Shown: piece by piece, positions 8,801-63,122 of the stretch
Layout of the letters: each line of letters opens with the position of its first letter
How positions within the stretch are numbered: the stretch's first letter is position 1
DNA from: Escherichia phage JEP8
DNA: 64,000 nt
Direction: 5' to 3' (one strand)
Sequence record: MT764208.1
Notes under the pieces: model-generated
Database searches by the model: none
What the model was told of the DNA's origin: nothing
Seen by the model: only the letters and a program-made list of their open reading frames with translations
Position numbers and translations under genes: made by a program

Positions 8801-8830
8801 ATCTTACTACTCCCTTAATCCTGTGTCAAC
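8801..8830 (-). promoter_or_regulatory. sigma70-like early promoter (-35 GTTGACA, 17 nt spacer, -10 TAAGAT) with GGGAGTA/TACTCCC palindrome flanking the -10
   Basis: Read on - strand; drives 8008-8766. Confidence 0.45.
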
Positions 8831-8836
8831 TAATTT

Positions 8837-8992
8837 TTAAATTTCTTCTACAGTAAAGTCTTCAATGTTGTTGTGCTCGGCGAACGTTGCCAGACCAGCA
8901 TTCCATGCATCATCCTCAGAGAAGAATACACCGTAACGTTCATATCCTTTAGCGCCTTCAAATTTAACCATTAATTTGTGAGTATGTTTCAT
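8837..8992 (-). CDS. hypothetical protein (51 aa)
   Basis: Trimmed to ATG after AGGAG; the ORF-track extension runs through the promoter. Confidence 0.45.
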   Translation of the reverse strand: MKHTHKLMVKFEGAKGYERYGVFFSEDDAWNAGLATFAEHNNIEDFTVEEI

Positions 8993-9022
8993 TTTGATTC
9001 TCCTTCGTTGTCTTGATGAGTT

Positions 9023-9052
9023 TAGTATAGGGGATCGCCGATCCCCTGTCAA
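9023..9052 (-). promoter_or_regulatory. sigma70-like early promoter (-35 GTTGACA, -10 TATACT); spacer is the palindrome GGGGATCGGCGATCCCC with two GATC sites
   Basis: Exact 17 nt spacing; near-identical cassettes at about 49.5 kb and 59.2 kb. Confidence 0.5.
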
Positions 9053-9061
9053 CAACTATTT

Positions 9062-9274
9062 TTAATTTTTACCCGCTCGTGCATTAATACGCATTTTCTG
9101 CATAGCCATGATCTGGCTTACTGCTTCTTCTTTACGTTTTTGCGTGATAACGTGACCAGATTCCGCAAACTCTCCCGCAACTTCTTCTACAATCTCGCGA
9201 ACTTGAGAACGTCCAAAGATGCGGTTTCCTTCGTAGCTCATAAATTCAGTCACTACTTGCTCAATAGATTTCAT
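9062..9274 (-). CDS. hypothetical protein (70 aa)
   Basis: Trimmed to ATG after AGGAGA. Confidence 0.5.
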   Translation of the reverse strand: MKSIEQVVTEFMSYEGNRIFGRSQVREIVEEVAGEFAESGHVITQKRKEEAVSQIMAMQKMRINARAGKN

Positions 9275-9303: not shown

Positions 9304-9332
9304 ATAATACTACTCCCATTTCTTTACGTCAA
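9304..9332 (-). promoter_or_regulatory. sigma70-like early promoter (-35 GTTGACG, -10 TATTAT inside GGGAGTA..TACTCCC palindrome)
   Basis: 17 nt spacer. Confidence 0.45.
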
Positions 9333-9335
9333 CAA

Positions 9336-9497
9336 CTATTTTAAATTATTTTCGACCTTCACCCATTCCGCGTATTCTTGCGCGGCTACTTTCGGATTTA
9401 AGCCGTCTTCGTACATTGCATCAAGTAATTCTTTGTCGGTGGGCTTATACCCTAGATAAGCCTCCACCTGATTTTTCCAAATTTTATACCAGTTCAT
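9336..9497 (-). CDS. hypothetical protein (53 aa)
   Basis: Trimmed to ATG after GGTGA. Confidence 0.4.
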   Translation of the reverse strand: MNWYKIWKNQVEAYLGYKPTDKELLDAMYEDGLNPKVAAQEYAEWVKVENNLK

Positions 9498-9501
9498 ATT
9501 A

Positions 9502-9774
9502 TCACCAATCAAGAGCGCGTGTCTCTGCGTCTTCCCATGCTTGATCCATAACAGCCTTGAAAACATATTCTAGAGTATCATCTTTAGAGAATCCGAAGAC
9601 TTTAGACGGAATATCTTCGATTGCTACTCCCGCAACTTCTGCATTACGCGCTTGGCAATAATGCAACTCTAAGTTATCGAGATAGCGACCGCCTAATTTC
9701 TCCATATCATCCCAGCATTTCCAGTAACCTACTTTATCTGCAATTGCCAACACTTTGCTGTTTTCGTTGCACAT
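9502..9774 (-). CDS. hypothetical protein (90 aa)
   Basis: Trimmed to ATG after AAGGAG. Confidence 0.5.
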   Translation of the reverse strand: MCNENSKVLAIADKVGYWKCWDDMEKLGGRYLDNLELHYCQARNAEVAGVAIEDIPSKVFGFSKDDTLEYVFKAVMDQAWEDAETRALDW

Positions 9775-9805
9775 CTTTGATTCTCCTTTTGTTTGGTATG
9801 TGTGT

Positions 9806-16870: not shown

Positions 16871-17230
16871 TCAACCTTTTGTTTTCGATGGGGATATTAT
16901 GATATATCCCCGATCCAGTGTCAACAGATTTTTAATCTTTTTCAATGCATCCATTACTCGCTCTGCGATCAGTTCTCGTAAGCACTGATAACCATGATAT
17001 TTGATGGCAATGTCACGCAGATCATTAACCAGTTCCCGTACTTCATGGTCTTTCAAATCGTCTCTGTATTTCGATTTAACCGTGTCTTTAGGTGGATTTC
17101 TGATAACCTGAAAACCTTGTTCTGCAATCACTGCGGCTTCGCGCTGGCGTTCATGCTGTACTGTATTTTTGATCAGGTCTGCTTCCATGAACTTTGCCAT
17201 ACTCATCATCATGTTATTCTTTTTGCTCAT
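16871..17230 (-). CDS. hypothetical protein (119 aa)
   Basis: Trimmed to ATG after GAGGA; its 3-prime end overlaps a promoter cassette. Confidence 0.45.
   Translation of the reverse strand: MSKKNNMMMSMAKFMEADLIKNTVQHERQREAAVIAEQGFQVIRNPPKDTVKSKYRDDLKDHEVRELVNDLRDIAIKYHGYQCLRELIAERVMDALKKIKNLLTLDRGYIIISPSKTKG
16896..16924 (-). promoter_or_regulatory. sigma70-like early promoter (-35 TTGACA, -10 CATAAT inside GGGGATAT..ATATCCCC palindrome)
   Basis: 17 nt spacer. Confidence 0.4.
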
Positions 17231-42051: not shown

Positions 42052-42080
42052 AGTATAACGGGGATTTCTCCCCGCGTCAA
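42052..42080 (-). promoter_or_regulatory. sigma70-like early promoter (-35 TTGACG, -10 TATACT) with GGGGA/TCCCC hairpin in spacer
   Basis: 17 nt spacer; immediately after gp47 stop. Confidence 0.45.
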
Positions 42081-49315: not shown

Positions 49316-49532
49316 ATTCAATTACCCCGAACTCGTTTACAATCTGCGCTTTATAGTAACCACCGCGAGATGCCAATAGATAAGCTGGTCTTAGGTATTC
49401 GTATTCACGGATTTCTACTTGTGCGTTTTCAGTTTCCCAAATCAGTAAAGTCCACATATTTGATTCTCCTGTAAAGTTGTATCTCGTCTTGATGAATATA
49501 GTATAGGGGATCTCGCGATCCCCGTCAAGAAT

Positions 49533-50075
49533 TTATTTTAAATTTTTTCGAATGTATTCAGACCATTCCTTCCCTGTCATTTCGGACCCGTTCTGGAAAC
49601 TGAAATATTCATAAGGCATCGAGTCAAGATAAAACAGGATCATACATCGCGCCATATAATACCAATCACGATTAAAGTAAACTACGTTATCACCAGTGCC
49701 ATCAACCCCTTTATCATAACCATCGCGGGTACGGGCTACCCATTGAATAGTATCAGTTTTCTCACGGATAGTAACAGGTTCCCAATATCCAGCACATCCA
49801 GCATGACCACACGAACAAGTAAGGAAGTATTGGCCTTTTGCTTTGTTGTCATCCCATTCACGATGGATTGGTTCGACCTCGTGAAACAGTACCAAACAAT
49901 CATGATTATGCAACACTGGCTTACCATCAATCAATGCATGGAATGTATACAAACGACCAGTAGACAAATAGCTATCCTCACGCTCAACCAGTTCAATAGC
50001 AATCTTTTTAGCTCGTTCTTTGTGTCGTTGTGCTTTACGCTTACGGTTTAATGATTTCATATTCACCTCACACAT
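49533..50075 (-). CDS. hypothetical Cys-rich protein (180 aa)
   Basis: Start coupled to upstream stop; CSCGHAGCAGYW. Confidence 0.5.
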   Translation of the reverse strand: MCEVNMKSLNRKRKAQRHKERAKKIAIELVEREDSYLSTGRLYTFHALIDGKPVLHNHDCLVLFHEVEPIHREWDDNKAKGQYFLTCSCGHAGCAGYWEPVTIREKTDTIQWVARTRDGYDKGVDGTGDNVVYFNRDWYYMARCMILFYLDSMPYEYFSFQNGSEMTGKEWSEYIRKNLK

Positions 50076-53124: not shown

Positions 53125-53178
53125 AATATAATCCTCTCGTTGTTAAGTGGGAGTATTATAGCATACTCCCTTCGCATG

Positions 53179-54357
53179 TCAAGCACTAACTTTTTTCTTT
53201 ACTGCTTTCACCTTCTGGCGAATTGCTCGAATCTCTTCGATCTCTTTTTCAGTCTCTTTAACAATTTCTTTGCGATTCTGAATATCTGTATCGAGATTAT
53301 CATCAAGTTTAGGCAGCATGTCAATCAAGAACTTTTTAAAGTCTTTCAGGTTTCGGATAACAGCACCTTCACCCATTACCGCCACCCCTACACCATCCGG
53401 CAGATCACCAAACAGCTTAACCAGTTCAGACAGATGATCATGATCTTCTAGTGCTTCTTCCGGTTCAGATGGCAGTTCAACAAAGTTATAACGTTCATCA
53501 TTGCTGATCAAGTGATACCAGCAAAGCCCAAAAGATTTAGGAGTATATTCTACACCATCAACTTCAACCGCGTCAACACTTCCGAAAGAATCTACTTTAG
53601 TTGCCTTAAATCCGTGTTCCAGCTTTTGAACAATTTCAATAACATGACTGGATACGGTTTCCGTATTAAACCAATGAGGCAAATTATGTGGATTTGGCTT
53701 GTAGCGTTCGCCTACTTTAAATCTCTGACCACGCTCTTGCATACGGACATATTCAACTCGCGTGATTTCCGCGAAGTATTCAAATTCGCCACCGTCAAAC
53801 ACACAAGCCCATTGATCACAAAAACGATCTGCCTTAACAGTTTCACCTTTCGCGGTGATCATGGTAGCTGATCCGTGCAATTCTTCTTCAACTAAAAAGC
53901 CATATTCGACAAAATCAACAAGTTTCATAGCTTCTTTGTGATCTGGATCATGCTCTCCCCAGAATCGCTTAAATTCTTGCAAACCTTCTGGGGTAAACGA
54001 ATAACATTTACCTTTTTCAAAGTAAGTCGGCATTGCATCCTCTTTCTTGTTCATCGCTTCGTATGCCTCTTTTGAGATGCGTTTAAAGTATTTACGCTCA
54101 TTGTGCATAATCATAGTAGCCCAATAATCAACAATATCATTAGCGGAATAAACTACATCTCCAGCTTCAATAGTAATAACATGACCGTGGTCATCTTTTT
54201 CTAATACTTTAAAGCCCTTTTCTACGATTTCAGCAACCCGAATATGACCACGGCGCGAAGCATCGGTCAGAATAATTGAATAGCGAGAAAAGTCTAGAAA
54301 CTCATCTTTACCACCTTCACGGAATGCATAGTAATGACCTTCAAAGAATTTAGCCAT
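53179..54357 (-). CDS. repeat-domain family protein (about 3 copies, 392 aa) with C-terminal coiled coil
   Basis: Three modules each ending ERKYF/FEYF/ERYNF; GAGAGGA Shine-Dalgarno. Confidence 0.55.
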   Translation of the reverse strand: MAKFFEGHYYAFREGGKDEFLDFSRYSIILTDASRRGHIRVAEIVEKGFKVLEKDDHGHVITIEAGDVVYSANDIVDYWATMIMHNERKYFKRISKEAYEAMNKKEDAMPTYFEKGKCYSFTPEGLQEFKRFWGEHDPDHKEAMKLVDFVEYGFLVEEELHGSATMITAKGETVKADRFCDQWACVFDGGEFEYFAEITRVEYVRMQERGQRFKVGERYKPNPHNLPHWFNTETVSSHVIEIVQKLEHGFKATKVDSFGSVDAVEVDGVEYTPKSFGLCWYHLISNDERYNFVELPSEPEEALEDHDHLSELVKLFGDLPDGVGVAVMGEGAVIRNLKDFKKFLIDMLPKLDDNLDTDIQNRKEIVKETEKEIEEIRAIRQKVKAVKKKVSA

Positions 54358-54413
54358 AATATAATCCTCTCGTTGTTTAGATGTGAGTATCTTACTACTC
54401 CCGTTTCATCATG

Positions 54414-54980
54414 TCAAGCGTTAAATGACTTTTGGATCTCTTTCAGTTCAGCTACTTTATCGGCGCTGAATTTAGCGTAGGTATCATGTCGAATAATTTC
54501 ACTTTCAAGAAAGGTTTCCAGCCGAGATCTATTTTCAATAAGGAACTCTTTCAGGTCTTCCGCGTTCTTGATAAAGATTTTATTGTCAGTAATGTCATCT
54601 TCAATCGCAAAGGAGATAGAGCGAACTTTACCAAACAAGTTAATCAGATCTTCCAGAGATTCTTCTTTCTTAACTGGTTTCATTTCTTCAAACTGCTTTT
54701 TAGTGATGCGTTTAAAGTATTTGCGCTCGCTTGCATCAATCATGATTGACGCACCCTCATAATCATGAGTTTCTACCAAATACACTTTACCCATAACATT
54801 AACCGTAAGAACTTTAAAGCCCCTGTGAAGCACACCATACAGGAACTTGTTATGTTGTGGATAGCGTTTAACAAATTCCTCTGCGGACTCAGCATTACGG
54901 AAAGTGTAATAACGACCTCGTTCAAAAACAGCATCATTTGAAGACTTAGCTGGATACAATTTATACGTTTTCTGTACCAT
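54414..54980 (-). CDS. repeat-domain family protein (188 aa)
   Basis: VQKTYKLY..GFKVL..ERKYFKRI; trimmed to ATG after AGAGGA. Confidence 0.5.
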   Translation of the reverse strand: MVQKTYKLYPAKSSNDAVFERGRYYTFRNAESAEEFVKRYPQHNKFLYGVLHRGFKVLTVNVMGKVYLVETHDYEGASIMIDASERKYFKRITKKQFEEMKPVKKEESLEDLINLFGKVRSISFAIEDDITDNKIFIKNAEDLKEFLIENRSRLETFLESEIIRHDTYAKFSADKVAELKEIQKSFNA

Positions 54981-54994
54981 AATATAATCCTCTA

Positions 54995-55267
54995 TCATTT
55001 CACTAATTGAACAGCACGGAACAGAATGCGCTCACACGGAAGCAGCATAAATTCCCAACGCGGATCAAAGTCTTTAGCGGTGTATGTTTTCCCATCAACC
55101 GAGATTTCACTTACATAACCAACAGGTGACACTTTAAGAACAGTAAATCCATTCTTGATGACTTCGTAGGTATCTTTCACTCCTTCGTATTCATCATCTA
55201 AGAAGTCTTTACGTGCTTGCTCAGATTTAAAAACATAGGCAACACCGGATTTAAACATCTTACGCAT
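54995..55267 (-). CDS. repeat-domain family protein (90 aa)
   Basis: Trimmed to ATG after AAGGAGA; GFTVLKV..VDGKTY. Confidence 0.5.
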   Translation of the reverse strand: MRKMFKSGVAYVFKSEQARKDFLDDEYEGVKDTYEVIKNGFTVLKVSPVGYVSEISVDGKTYTAKDFDPRWEFMLLPCERILFRAVQLVK

Positions 55268-55330
55268 TGTTGATTCTCCTTCTTGATTAGATGGGAGCAT
55301 TTTACTACTCCCATTTCTTATTGTCAACTA

Positions 55331-56118: not shown

Positions 56119-56931
56119 TCAATCTACGTTAGTTACATAAACTTCTTGCGTATCAGAAGACTTACCACCTGAACGATCTAGGCAATAGGTCTTATTCAAC
56201 AGGACGCAGTTTAAATCATTCCGCTTGATAAAGTCAAGGAGATGATCATTTACCTTTCCCTTATGATGTGTGACATTACTGATACCAAACTGAAAACCAC
56301 GCGCCATAATAGATTCTACCCACTGATAGAATTTAATCTCTTCCTCGTTACTCCAGAACTTATTGTATTCCGCAGAAGTGATAAGGTACGGCGGGTCCAA
56401 ATAAACGAAATCACCTGGCAAGATCTCGATCTCGTCATAGCGACCAGACGTAAAACTGATTCGACCGTCTTTGTTTTCTTCCTTAAAATTCAGGACACGC
56501 TCTACCGCGTTTTCGTTAAAAGTCCGGCGACCAAAATTAGCATTAAATTCTCCCTTTCGGTTATGGCGGTTAATGTTGCTAAAACTGTGCTGAATCAACA
56601 CAAACAGAGATAGCGGATCTGGATTCTCGTTATACTTCTTACGGAATATCATGTAAGCGTCTTTATCATCACGAGACAAATCATTTTCGGCAATAATACG
56701 CTTGATCGTAGAAACCGGATCAGGACACTCGTCAATCGCTTTGTACGCGTCAATTAAGCGGTGATCATAGTCATTAGCCAGCACATCACCTTCGACGTAC
56801 AGAGACACGCTCAAGCCGCCACAGAAGGCATCAACAAAGCGGTTATAGCGCTTAGGGAAATACTTACTAACACCGGGCAATAGCTTTTCCTTATTGCCAG
56901 TATAGGGAATTAAACCTAATGCTTTCTTCAT
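56119..56931 (-). CDS. dam: DNA adenine methyltransferase Dam
   Basis: YTGNK..LLP, NRFVD.FCGGLSVSL, VLAND, GDFVY.DPPYLIT.A.YNKFWS.EEE, GISNV..H.GK.N match recalled T4 Dam. Confidence 0.85.
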   Translation of the reverse strand: MKKALGLIPYTGNKEKLLPGVSKYFPKRYNRFVDAFCGGLSVSLYVEGDVLANDYDHRLIDAYKAIDECPDPVSTIKRIIAENDLSRDDKDAYMIFRKKYNENPDPLSLFVLIQHSFSNINRHNRKGEFNANFGRRTFNENAVERVLNFKEENKDGRISFTSGRYDEIEILPGDFVYLDPPYLITSAEYNKFWSNEEEIKFYQWVESIMARGFQFGISNVTHHKGKVNDHLLDFIKRNDLNCVLLNKTYCLDRSGGKSSDTQEVYVTNVD

Positions 56932-58878: not shown

Positions 58879-59157
58879 TTACATGTCTTGCAGTGCATAA
58901 AAGCATTTTTCTTCATAGTCATAGAAAATGTCAAAGTATGCTTTTTCCACATACTCGCCATTAATCCAAGCGGCAGTAACAATCAGAGTGGTCCAGTTAG
59001 ATCCGCTCTCAACGGTAAAGGTTTTAATACCCAGCTTCGCTGCCAAGTCGAACGCAAACCGGACGCAACCACGGCAGGAAGTGATATTGGAAGTTTTGAT
59101 TTTAAAGCCACCGCGAGTTTTAGAAATTTCTACTTTAGCGAAAGACAGGTTGCTCAT
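58879..59157 (-). CDS. hypothetical protein (92 aa)
   Basis: Trimmed to ATG after AAGGAGA. Confidence 0.45.
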   Translation of the reverse strand: MSNLSFAKVEISKTRGGFKIKTSNITSCRGCVRFAFDLAAKLGIKTFTVESGSNWTTLIVTAAWINGEYVEKAYFDIFYDYEEKCFYALQDM

Positions 59158-59194
59158 TTTGATTCTCCTTAAGAAAGTGTGTTTCGTTTTGATG

Positions 59195-59226
59195 TGTGTA
59201 GTATAGGGGATCACCGATCCCCTGTC
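59195..59226 (-). promoter_or_regulatory. sigma70-like early promoter cassette (-35 GTTGACA, spacer GGGGATCGGTGATCCCC, -10 TATACT); coordinates approximate
   Basis: Near-identical to the cassettes at 9023-9052 and about 49.5 kb. Confidence 0.45.
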
Positions 59227-59236
59227 AACAACTTTT

Positions 59237-59500
59237 TTATGATTTTAGTGAATTAACCACCACATCAAAATGATGTACAGAGTACACCTTATTAAACACA
59301 TATTCATCGTGTTTAGGAATCGCCCCTAATCGCTCTATTTCGCTCGCTAACACGATAAAACGTTTATCCGGTGCATTTACCTTATATGCTTCAACAACGC
59401 ACGGAAAACGCGTTTTAGCGAGTTCGGGATAGTTTTCTGACTCCATCAGGACAATGAATACCCTATTACATTGATTGTAGAATCCGGTTTTTGATTTCAT
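59237..59500 (-). CDS. hypothetical protein (start uncertain)
   Basis: ORF track trimmed to an internal ATG. Confidence 0.4.
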   Translation of the reverse strand: MKSKTGFYNQCNRVFIVLMESENYPELAKTRFPCVVEAYKVNAPDKRFIVLASEIERLGAIPKHDEYVFNKVYSVHHFDVVVNSLKS

Positions 59501-62490: not shown

Positions 62491-62775
62491 TTAAACTAAT
62501 CGAATGTAGCCCAAAATTTCAGCACTTTTAGCCAGATCTAAAATTTCCCATTCAAGATCGCCGTAGTCATAATTTGCAACCATCAACTGACCATTTTTCA
62601 TGCAGCAATCATGAGAGAAAATTTGCCCCGCATAAACTACGATAGTGATAAACTTTCCTGATTCTGGCGGTGTGGAAGACAAAGCGACCATATGACCATT
62701 CAGCTTAGTCACCAGTGATGGAACAATAAAATTCGGGCTTACCTTAATACCGTTAAATTCGTTTGTGTCTTTCAT
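62491..62775 (-). CDS. hypothetical protein (94 aa)
   Basis: GAGGT Shine-Dalgarno; ATGA overlap. Confidence 0.5.
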   Translation of the reverse strand: MKDTNEFNGIKVSPNFIVPSLVTKLNGHMVALSSTPPESGKFITIVVYAGQIFSHDCCMKNGQLMVANYDYGDLEWEILDLAKSAEILGYIRLV

Positions 62776-63122
62776 GCCAGACCTCGCAAAACACTAATAG
62801 CATAATCATGCTGGTTATTCATAATATCAATTGCATTGTGATAACGAGCTAAACCATCAAGGATAAATTCTTGTTTATCCTGTTTCAGTTTGGTATCACG
62901 CGCAGCCATAAGAGCATCGAGAACAGGTCCAAAGTGATTATCTAATTCATCTTCGGTTGCAATGTTTCCTATTGCCTCGTCGATCCGTGATTCTAATGCT
63001 TGCTTTTCGTTGATCACTTGCTGGGTATATTCCAACACATCAAGAATATCGCGGGTAACGTCGCCGTGATAAGGTATTCCCGCATGAAGATGATCAATTA
63101 ATCGCTGAATATCGATGTTCAT
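62772..63122 (-). CDS. hypothetical protein (116 aa)
   Basis: AGAGGAGGG Shine-Dalgarno. Confidence 0.5.
   Translation of the reverse strand: MNIDIQRLIDHLHAGIPYHGDVTRDILDVLEYTQQVINEKQALESRIDEAIGNIATEDELDNHFGPVLDALMAARDTKLKQDKQEFILDGLARYHNAIDIMNNQHDYAISVLRGLA

Follow-up and report, generated by a model that had tools for sequence, protein, structure and literature searches.

Early promoters with a double-GATC hairpin in an RB49-like coliphage are promoter-early stem-loops

The stretch of DNA considered here, 64,000 nucleotides of Escherichia phage JEP8 (MT764208.1; hereafter the window), carries on its minus strand three near-identical promoter cassettes, each set in a gap between two ORFs. 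The order of their parts is the same in all three: an AT-rich tract with the stop codon of the upstream ORF, (G)TTGAC, a hairpin, TATACT, CATCAA(G/A)AC, AGGAGAATCAAAATG, and the next ORF. The whole cassette is packed into the 69-79 nt that separate stop codon from start codon. These elements belong to the promoter-early stem-loops (PeSLs) known from related phages, and they are listed below together with other PeSLs of the window and with its dam gene.

8990..9064, minus strand: complete PeSL, orthologue of RB49 PeSL264/263
9064-9062, minus strand: stop codon TAA of the upstream ORF
9061-9053, minus strand: AT-rich tract
9052-9047, minus strand: -35 hexamer TTGACA
9046-9030, minus strand: hairpin GGGGATC-GGC-GATCCCC; as 9030..9046, a perfect 7+3+7 palindrome that fills the 17-nt spacer, its GATC sites starting 7 nt apart
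9029-9024, minus strand: -10 hexamer TATACT
9017, minus strand: predicted +1, the A in CAT
9004-9000 and 8992-8990, minus strand: Shine-Dalgarno AGGAG and start codon ATG
49455..49535, minus strand: complete PeSL, orthologue of RB49 PeSL054/053
49535-49533 and 49528-49523, minus strand: stop codon TAA and -35 hexamer TTGACG
49523-49506, minus strand: hairpin GGGGATC-GCGA-GATCCCC
49505-49500 and 49493, minus strand: -10 hexamer TATACT and predicted +1 (A)
49470-49466 and 49457-49455, minus strand: Shine-Dalgarno and start codon ATG of a DUF7170 ORF, upstream of nrdG
59155..59239, minus strand: complete PeSL, orthologue of RB49 PeSL071/070
59239-59237 and 59228-59223, minus strand: stop codon TAA and -35 hexamer
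59222-59206, minus strand: hairpin GGGGATC-GGT-GATCCCC
59205-59200 and 59193, minus strand: -10 hexamer TATACT and predicted +1 (A)
59169-59165 and 59157-59155, minus strand: Shine-Dalgarno and start codon ATG
8801..8829, minus strand: PeSL of the GGGAGTA..TACTCCC class
9304..9332, minus strand: PeSL of the GGGAGTA..TACTCCC class, hairpin over the -10; one end of the PeSL-to-PeSL deletion in phage ECD7
9806..9834, minus strand: PeSL-type promoter TTGACT-N17-CATAAT; other end of the 9309-9777 deletion
16896..16924, minus strand: PeSL of another sub-class, TTGACA with hairpin GGGGATAT/ATATCCCC spanning the -10 CATAAT
42052..42080, minus strand: PeSL with the GATC-free spacer hairpin CGGGGA-GAAA-TCCCCG (fold -15.4 kcal/mol)
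53155..55327, minus strand: span of three PeSLs of the GGGAGTA..TACTCCC class (53182-53155, 54417-54389, 55327-55299)
56119..56931, minus strand: dam, a D12 N6-adenine methyltransferase of the T4 Dam type, orthologue of RB49p063

On the minus strand, positions 9052-9024 read TTGACA-GGGGATCGGCGATCCCC-TATACT and positions 59228-59200 read TTGACA-GGGGATCGGTGATCCCC-TATACT, while 49528-49500 hold a variant, cTTGACG-GGGATCGCGAGATCCCC-TATACT, again with a 17-nt spacer and two GATC sites. The preliminary description had given GTTGACA..TATACT for all three loci; this stands for the first and the last, but in the middle one the -35 is TTGACG, whose final G at the same time opens the stem, and the loop has 4 nt instead of 3. 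Its other reading, a 17-nt spacer occupied by a palindrome with two GATC sites, holds in every copy. At this spacing, the matches to the sigma70 consensus are 11/12, 11/12, and 10/12; the TAA lies 4-9 nt 5' of the -35 and AGGAG 7-8 nt 5' of the ATG. The stems are perfect over 7 bp, and the RNA folds range from -13.8 to -14.6 kcal/mol (z = -2.2 to -3.3), with -14.6 kcal/mol (z = -2.7, 51-nt RNA) for the hairpin at 9030..9046 and -13.9 kcal/mol (z = -3.3) for that of the cassette at 49455..49535. Within the spacer, the GATC sites take up nucleotides 4-7 and 11-14 when the loop has 3 nt, or 3-6 and 11-14 when it has 4, and the hexamers are left untouched.

The similarity among the three copies extends well beyond these 29 nt, from the AT-rich tract through to AGGAGAATCAAAATG, and 53 nt of the cassette at 8990..9064 are 100% identical to RB49 158927-158979. 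Transcription is predicted to start at 9017, 49493, and 59193, at the A of the conserved CAT, 7 nt past the -10. All three cassettes have AGGAG as their Shine-Dalgarno sequence (9000-9004, 49466-49470, and 59165-59169). RB49 encodes RegB, and the RegB of T4 cleaves the GGAG of early mRNAs, so that the transcripts of the three cassettes may be RegB targets.

A motif search like the one proposed in the preliminary description was run on the window. With up to two mismatches allowed, the pattern TTGACA-N17-TATACT occurs 34 times, where 8.4 +/- 3.2 occurrences are expected, and all but one of them (33/34) are on the minus strand; the palindrome pattern GGGGATCNNNGATCCCC is found twice against 0.06 expected by chance. 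In our own reading of the scans, the window holds about 18 intergenic promoters of the PeSL type, with further stems such as GGGAGTA/TACTCCC, CGGGGA/TCCCCG, and ATGCGGT/ACCGCAT. The first of these is the second palindrome class already noticed around the -10 of other promoters, and it was recovered at 9332, 8829, 55327, 54417, and 53182. The related promoter at 16896-16924 does have the single GATC ascribed to it, but this site is placed 3 nt after the -35 and not just 5' of the -10. As for the dam gene, its assignment at 56119-56931 is borne out by Pfam PF02086 (E = 3.8e-30) and by a full-length match to the T4 Dam structures 1YFJ/1Q0S (E = 1e-64).

A distinct hairpin, AGCCGATCC-loop-GG(G)TCGGCT, is repeated on the minus strand at 9875-9853 and 50715-50694, where it is followed by a T-run and then by a TTGACA promoter. 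From its sequence it looks like a canonical terminator, and it is specific to RNA because it contains G·U pairs. It holds one GATC and fits the PeSL sub-class with the stem-loop 5' of the -35.

The window is 97-98% identical to RB49, phi1, G2248, and about 55 further Krischvirus phages (Straboviridae). It was in RB49 and phi1 that PeSLs were described in 2010 by Arbiol, Comeau, Kutateladze, Adamia, and Krisch (Genome Biol Evol 2:140), as a near-consensus sigma70 promoter with an AT-rich upstream tract and a G-rich/C-rich stem-loop, 51-52 of them per genome, mostly 5' of ORFans and in hyperplastic regions (PMC2839356). Five sub-classes were distinguished by the position of the stem-loop, and the arrangement of the three window copies, with the stem-loop between -35 and -10, is among the two most frequent (PMC2839356); a further account is that of Comeau et al. 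2014 (PMC4122927). The three elements of the window are PeSLs of an RB49-like (Krischvirus), T4-type coliphage. Each has its promoter in an intergenic gap, a Gn-loop-Cn stem, a stop codon in the AT tract, and a Shine-Dalgarno sequence with ATG; they are multicopy and associated with indels, and the ORFs downstream of them belong to no Pfam family or to a DUF only. The 53-nt cassette has 5-9 matching places per Krischvirus genome. What had been called near-identical early promoter cassettes are thus sigma70-type PeSLs, with an anatomy that matches the definition in PMC2839356, and the readings of the three copies as promoter cassettes and as recombination substrates are already in print. The identity of the elements, their anatomy, and the comparative pattern come from the present analysis; the promoter, terminator, and mini-circle activities of their relatives are taken from the published work.

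A search of the whole RB49 genome gave six copies with two GATC sites, between the ORF pairs 054/053, 071/070, 192/191, 206/205, 210/209, and 264/263. Two more copies of the same sub-family have a single GATC: PeSL211/210, which reads GGGGATCACGTATCCCC, and the copy at 115,033, which reads GGGGGTC-ACC-GATCCCC. To judge from these sequences, the double-GATC hairpin is the mark of a single sub-family of paralogues, which has 8 members in RB49 and 3 in the window. Two RB49 ORFs that lie 3' of double-GATC PeSLs, ORF191 (117,347) and ORF205 (121,673), have near-identical starts, ATGTTCGAGACTAAAGCAG and ATGTTCCAGACTAAAGCAG, which suggests that PeSL and ORF were duplicated together as a single cassette.

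Several members of the sub-family have been studied at the bench: the published work on promoter, terminator, and mini-circle activity made use of 206/205, 211/210, 210/209, and 192/191. In DH5alpha, a clone of wild-type PeSL206/205 yielded about 13,000 Miller units (PMC2839356); since this PeSL is a double-GATC copy in RB49 and in phi1 alike, the promoter result applies whichever phage was the source. The stem-loop of PeSL211/210 lowered lacZ expression about as much as rrnB T1 did, a reporter result for one family member outside its native context (PMC2839356). The mini-circles of ORFan192 and ORFan210 arise by crossover between PeSLs, and in that of ORFan210 from RB49 the crossover of the flanking PeSLs falls inside the loop (PMC2839356).

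How, then, might such a cassette work? An explanation in three parts, in which the GATC pair is incidental to one copied hairpin sequence, seems to us highly probable. PeSLs would sit between the small early genes of hyperplastic regions, and the cassette would be, in the first place, a strong sigma70 promoter, with an UP-like AT tract, a -35 that departs from the consensus by one base at most, a spacer of the optimal 17 nt, TATACT, and a CAT start, which host RNA polymerase would use immediately after infection. The role of the AT-rich tract is probably that of an UP element. RB49-like phages are not known to have MotA/AsiA. In the second place, the G4-loop-C4 hairpin would terminate or attenuate read-through and leave each small gene insulated; as it exactly fills the spacer, 5' of its own start, it would be transcribed only by polymerase arriving from upstream. 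Finally, the ~70-90 nt common to the copies would offer the recombination system of the phage short patches of homology, and the outcome would be deletions and insertions, conversion of one copy by another, and the excision of mini-circles. The GGGGATC/GATCCCC sequence would have spread by duplication and conversion of the cassette rather than as an independently selected Dam switch. By analogy, we infer that the three copies of the window behave like the published family members and that their GATC sites are incidental.

The second part of this explanation deserves a comment. The hairpins are without a U-tract, because their tail is the -10 hexamer (UAUACU): the tail, UAUACUAA, falls below the criterion of five T in eight, and a simple terminator scan did not call the GATC hairpins of the three copies. 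What speaks for termination or attenuation is therefore the published reporter experiment with the paralogue.

As for the third part, the idea that the repeats are recombination substrates for module shuffling agrees with the published PeSL model (PMC2839356) and with polymorphisms at or beside the copies in relatives of the phage. One case is the loss of window 9309-9777, i.e., two small ORFs between PeSL9834 and PeSL9332, from ECD7 and one further contig. The junction is a chimeric PeSL9834/PeSL9332 with the crossover in the common ATACCAAAC..GGAGAATCA segment, and by its sequence this is a textbook PeSL-to-PeSL deletion. An insertion is found in the contig IMGVR_UViG_3300045988_033703, where an ORF of 93 aa (264 bp, 1159-1422) is placed at window 9070/9072, between ORF264 and the AT-rich edge of PeSL9052; it has no counterpart in the window, and its start is apparently coupled to the stop of the upstream ORF. 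In ECD7 and OZ035808, the flanks of 071/070 enclose a loop of the 211/210 type, a combination that indicates gene conversion between copies. At the 49.5-kb copy, no PeSL-bounded replacement was found in JSE, SSG23, and KFS-EC; their divergence lies inside the upstream ORF, at window about 49856-50007.

More elaborate is the case of LF73P4 (OZ035795.1), which differs from RB49 by four novel junctions, with breaks at record positions about 37,650, 56,800, and 83,230. Its homology to the window ends at 59246, at the AT-rich edge of PeSL59228, and continues as RB49 123,217 onwards (ORF211, DNA ligase). The PeSLs concerned are chimeric: ORF211 is joined to ORF070 and, reciprocally, ORF071 to ORF210. 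The other two novel junctions fall at a non-coding inverted repeat of ~110 bp. The two copies of this repeat, window about 257-366 (RB49 150,000-150,109) and RB49 62,775-62,882, are 93.6% identical, and weaker copies occur near RB49 97.5-97.8 kb. The arrangement is as if two successive inversions had taken place, one between the 110-bp repeats and the other between PeSL071/070 and PeSL211/210; it may instead be a misassembly at the repeats.

Another question is whether the pair of GATC sites has a meaning of its own. A search for related loci with the three downstream proteins returned two Krischvirus contigs in IMG/VR, and GenBank phage records were sampled instead. The comparison takes in 39 copies of the family, drawn from 10 genomes or contigs (the window, RB49, phi1, LF73P4, OZ035808, ECD7, the IMG/VR contig, JSE, SSG23, and KFS-EC). 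The GC-rich hairpin is present in 39/39, while the number of GATC sites varies: two in 30 copies, one in 7, and none in 2. The locus 5' of ORF209 (210/209) is instructive, as the hairpin there is GGGGATC-ACC-GATCCCC in RB49 and GGGGATC-GGGA-GATCCCC in phi1, and in LF73P4 and OZ035808 it is replaced by the GATC-free GGGGAG-GTTAAA-CTCCCC or GGGAG-GTTAAA-CTCCC between conserved flanks. In two different copies, RB49 115,033 and phi1 193/191, GATC has become GGTC; the Dam site is gone and a G·U pair is kept in the transcript, a change that is sensible only if it is the RNA hairpin that is being preserved. These two A-to-G changes are independent. PeSL211/210, the source of the stem-loop tested as a terminator, has lost its second GATC and has a stem of 6 bp and a loop of 5 nt.

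Since the hairpin is kept even where GATC is lost, the GATC pair would be incidental to the hairpin sequence: most simply, the hairpin is what is maintained, and the two sites are a property of one copied version of it. As the genomes are only a few percent (2-8%) diverged, this conservation argument is good evidence, short of proof. The stems of T4/PST-type PeSLs, AGNA-loop-TCNT, cannot hold GATC, yet T4 encodes Dam.

A broader scan of IMG/VR, with the pattern GTTGAC-N18-TATACT-N5-CATCAA, returned mostly strong promoters of unrelated phages and only 3 Krischvirus matches, and it was unusable as a census of spacers. These matches, on many unrelated phage contigs, are apparently real strong promoters, and several are repeated with conserved spacers of their own, e.g., TAGATAAATAATTTATC.

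The loops of the hairpins add a further observation. At 264/263, the loop is GGC in the window (9030-9046) and GCC in OZ035808.1, and at 054/053 it is GCGA in the window (49506-49523) and TCGC in OZ035808.1; in both cases, it is reverse-complemented between unchanged arms. A third such pair, GGT and ACC, separates RB49 (121,715-121,729) from phi1 and LF73P4 at 206/205, although here conversion from a paralogue could be the cause. As the GCGA loop occurs at no other locus, an in-place flip by pairing of arm to arm in the DNA is likely there. These flips imply that the loop sequence is under no strand-specific selection, and they hint at an activity of the palindromes as DNA, which would fit the published crossover inside the loop (PMC2839356). 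They are not described in the PeSL papers, and, if confirmed, flipping in place would mark PeSLs as active DNA palindromes.

Could the hairpin then be chiefly a DNA structure, a hairpin or cruciform cut by endonuclease VII (gp49) or by gp46/47 so as to initiate recombination, with effects on transcription being secondary? The arms are perfectly palindromic, RB49 encodes gp49 and gp46/47, and exact reverse-complement loops at orthologous sites (GGC/GCC, GCGA/TCGC, GGT/ACC) are what is expected if the arms pair in DNA; a mini-circle crossover in RB49 was mapped inside the loop (PMC2839356). Nevertheless, this reading is unlikely: a stem of 7 bp offers little length for the extrusion of a cruciform, selection at the RNA level is indicated both by the G·U-compatible changes and by hairpins of other classes that contain G·U pairs, other crossovers were mapped away from the stem, either in the AT-rich tract or in the stretch that separates the -10 from the Shine-Dalgarno sequence, and short homology alone suffices for T4-type recombination.

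The three-part explanation has also to be weighed against a role for methylation. GATC in the spacer would enter the cell fully methylated and become hemimethylated once the DNA has replicated, and this might alter promoter strength, possibly through a SeqA-like reader, so that some early promoters would respond to replication or to whether the host is dam+ or dam-. The phage does encode a full-length Dam of the T4 type, both sites are retained in 30/39 of the sampled copies, and GATC and Dam are absent from the PeSL papers. Dam-sensitive promoters also exist, such as IS10 pIN, that of the IS50 transposase, P1 cre, and dnaA. Even so, we regard such a switch as very improbable, and the tuning by methylation suggested in the preliminary description finds no support. 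The sites lie within the spacer and overlap neither the -35 nor the -10, and at least one of them has been lost in 9/39 copies with the stem kept; these losses affect orthologues and paralogues, and some are the G·U-compatible changes described above. In most PeSLs the stems are free of GATC, which is found in one of several types of hairpin. Moreover, GATC is common in the genome, with 373 sites in the 64 kb of the window or 1 per 172 bp, as the trinucleotide content predicts. The very high activity of PeSL206/205 was measured in DH5alpha, a dam+ strain, so that methylation does not silence this promoter. Finally, the GATC sites start 7-8 bp apart, about 0.7 turn, and are off the same face of the helix.

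Two narrower ideas were considered alongside. Depletion or enrichment of GATC was rejected as a signal, the 373 sites observed comparing with 360 expected from trinucleotide content (227 from base composition). Sequestration by SeqA is not favored either, given the 7-8 bp spacing and the preference of this protein for GATC pairs on the same helix face (PMC2691817). A literature search found no paper that connects PeSLs, or the early promoters of T4-type phages, with GATC or Dam, and the Dam-tuning idea is, in this sense, new. Its strongest form, in which the ~8 double-GATC early promoters are sensitive to replication or methylation, being active on injected DNA and altered when hemimethylated or after growth in a dam- host, deserves little credence; if true, it would amount to an epigenetic timer for some early genes of RB49-like phages.

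Very improbable, too, is that GGGGATC-n3-GATCCCC is the site of a dimeric phage or host protein, be it a repressor of early promoters or a recombination protein that targets PeSLs: a perfect palindrome between -35 and -10 is in the classic position for a repressor, and Arbiol et al. speculated that the GGGG...CCCC stem-loop is the target of a DNA-binding recombination protein (PMC2839356), so that the palindrome-binding protein of the preliminary description had a precedent, but loops of 3 to 6 nt leave the spacing of half-sites unfixed, loop orientation flips, the arms vary (GGGGAT, GGGGAG, GGGAG) and whole hairpins are replaced at orthologous sites, unrelated hairpins lie over the -10 or 5' of the -35 in other PeSLs, and no candidate binder was identified; the variable loops, the flips, and the replaced hairpins speak against a spacing-sensitive, sequence-specific protein.

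With the three-part explanation preferred, the useful result about the Dam sites is a negative one: they are explained by one hairpin sequence copied around the genome. To the published picture of PeSLs, the comparison adds evidence for gene conversion, a case of one hairpin exchanged for another while the locus stays the same, G·U-compatible changes that favor a role in RNA, and the loop flips. Few concrete mechanisms have been proposed for the shuffling of accessory genes in large lytic phages, and PeSLs are among them; recognizing them aids annotation, as they mark promoters, transcript ends, and likely recombination breakpoints.

Comparison with known systems places these elements among familiar ones. 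Like the promoters of IS10 pIN, IS50, P1 cre, and dnaA, they have GATC inside a sigma70 promoter in a genome exposed to Dam; in those promoters, however, GATC overlaps the -10/-35 or the site of a regulator and activity varies with methylation, whereas in the three copies it is confined to the spacer. With intrinsic terminators they share a GC-rich stem of 7 bp, a short loop, and a position directly 3' of a stop codon, and one family member was similar to rrnB T1 in a lacZ reporter; terminators have a U-tract, while the PeSL hairpin runs into UAUACU. From the PeSLs of RB49 and phi1 there is no structural difference: the three copies are near-identical orthologues (264/263, 054/053, 071/070), with a like anatomy, the same setting upstream of ORFans, and the same association with indels, although the PeSL papers are silent on the two Dam sites in the stem of this sub-family, on loop flips, and on hairpin replacement. 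Lastly, as in morons and integron cassettes, small accessory genes travel with a promoter and a terminator of their own; PeSLs, however, owe their mobility to homologous recombination between regulatory repeats and have no integrase or attC-type site, a comparison drawn by the authors who described them (PMC2839356).
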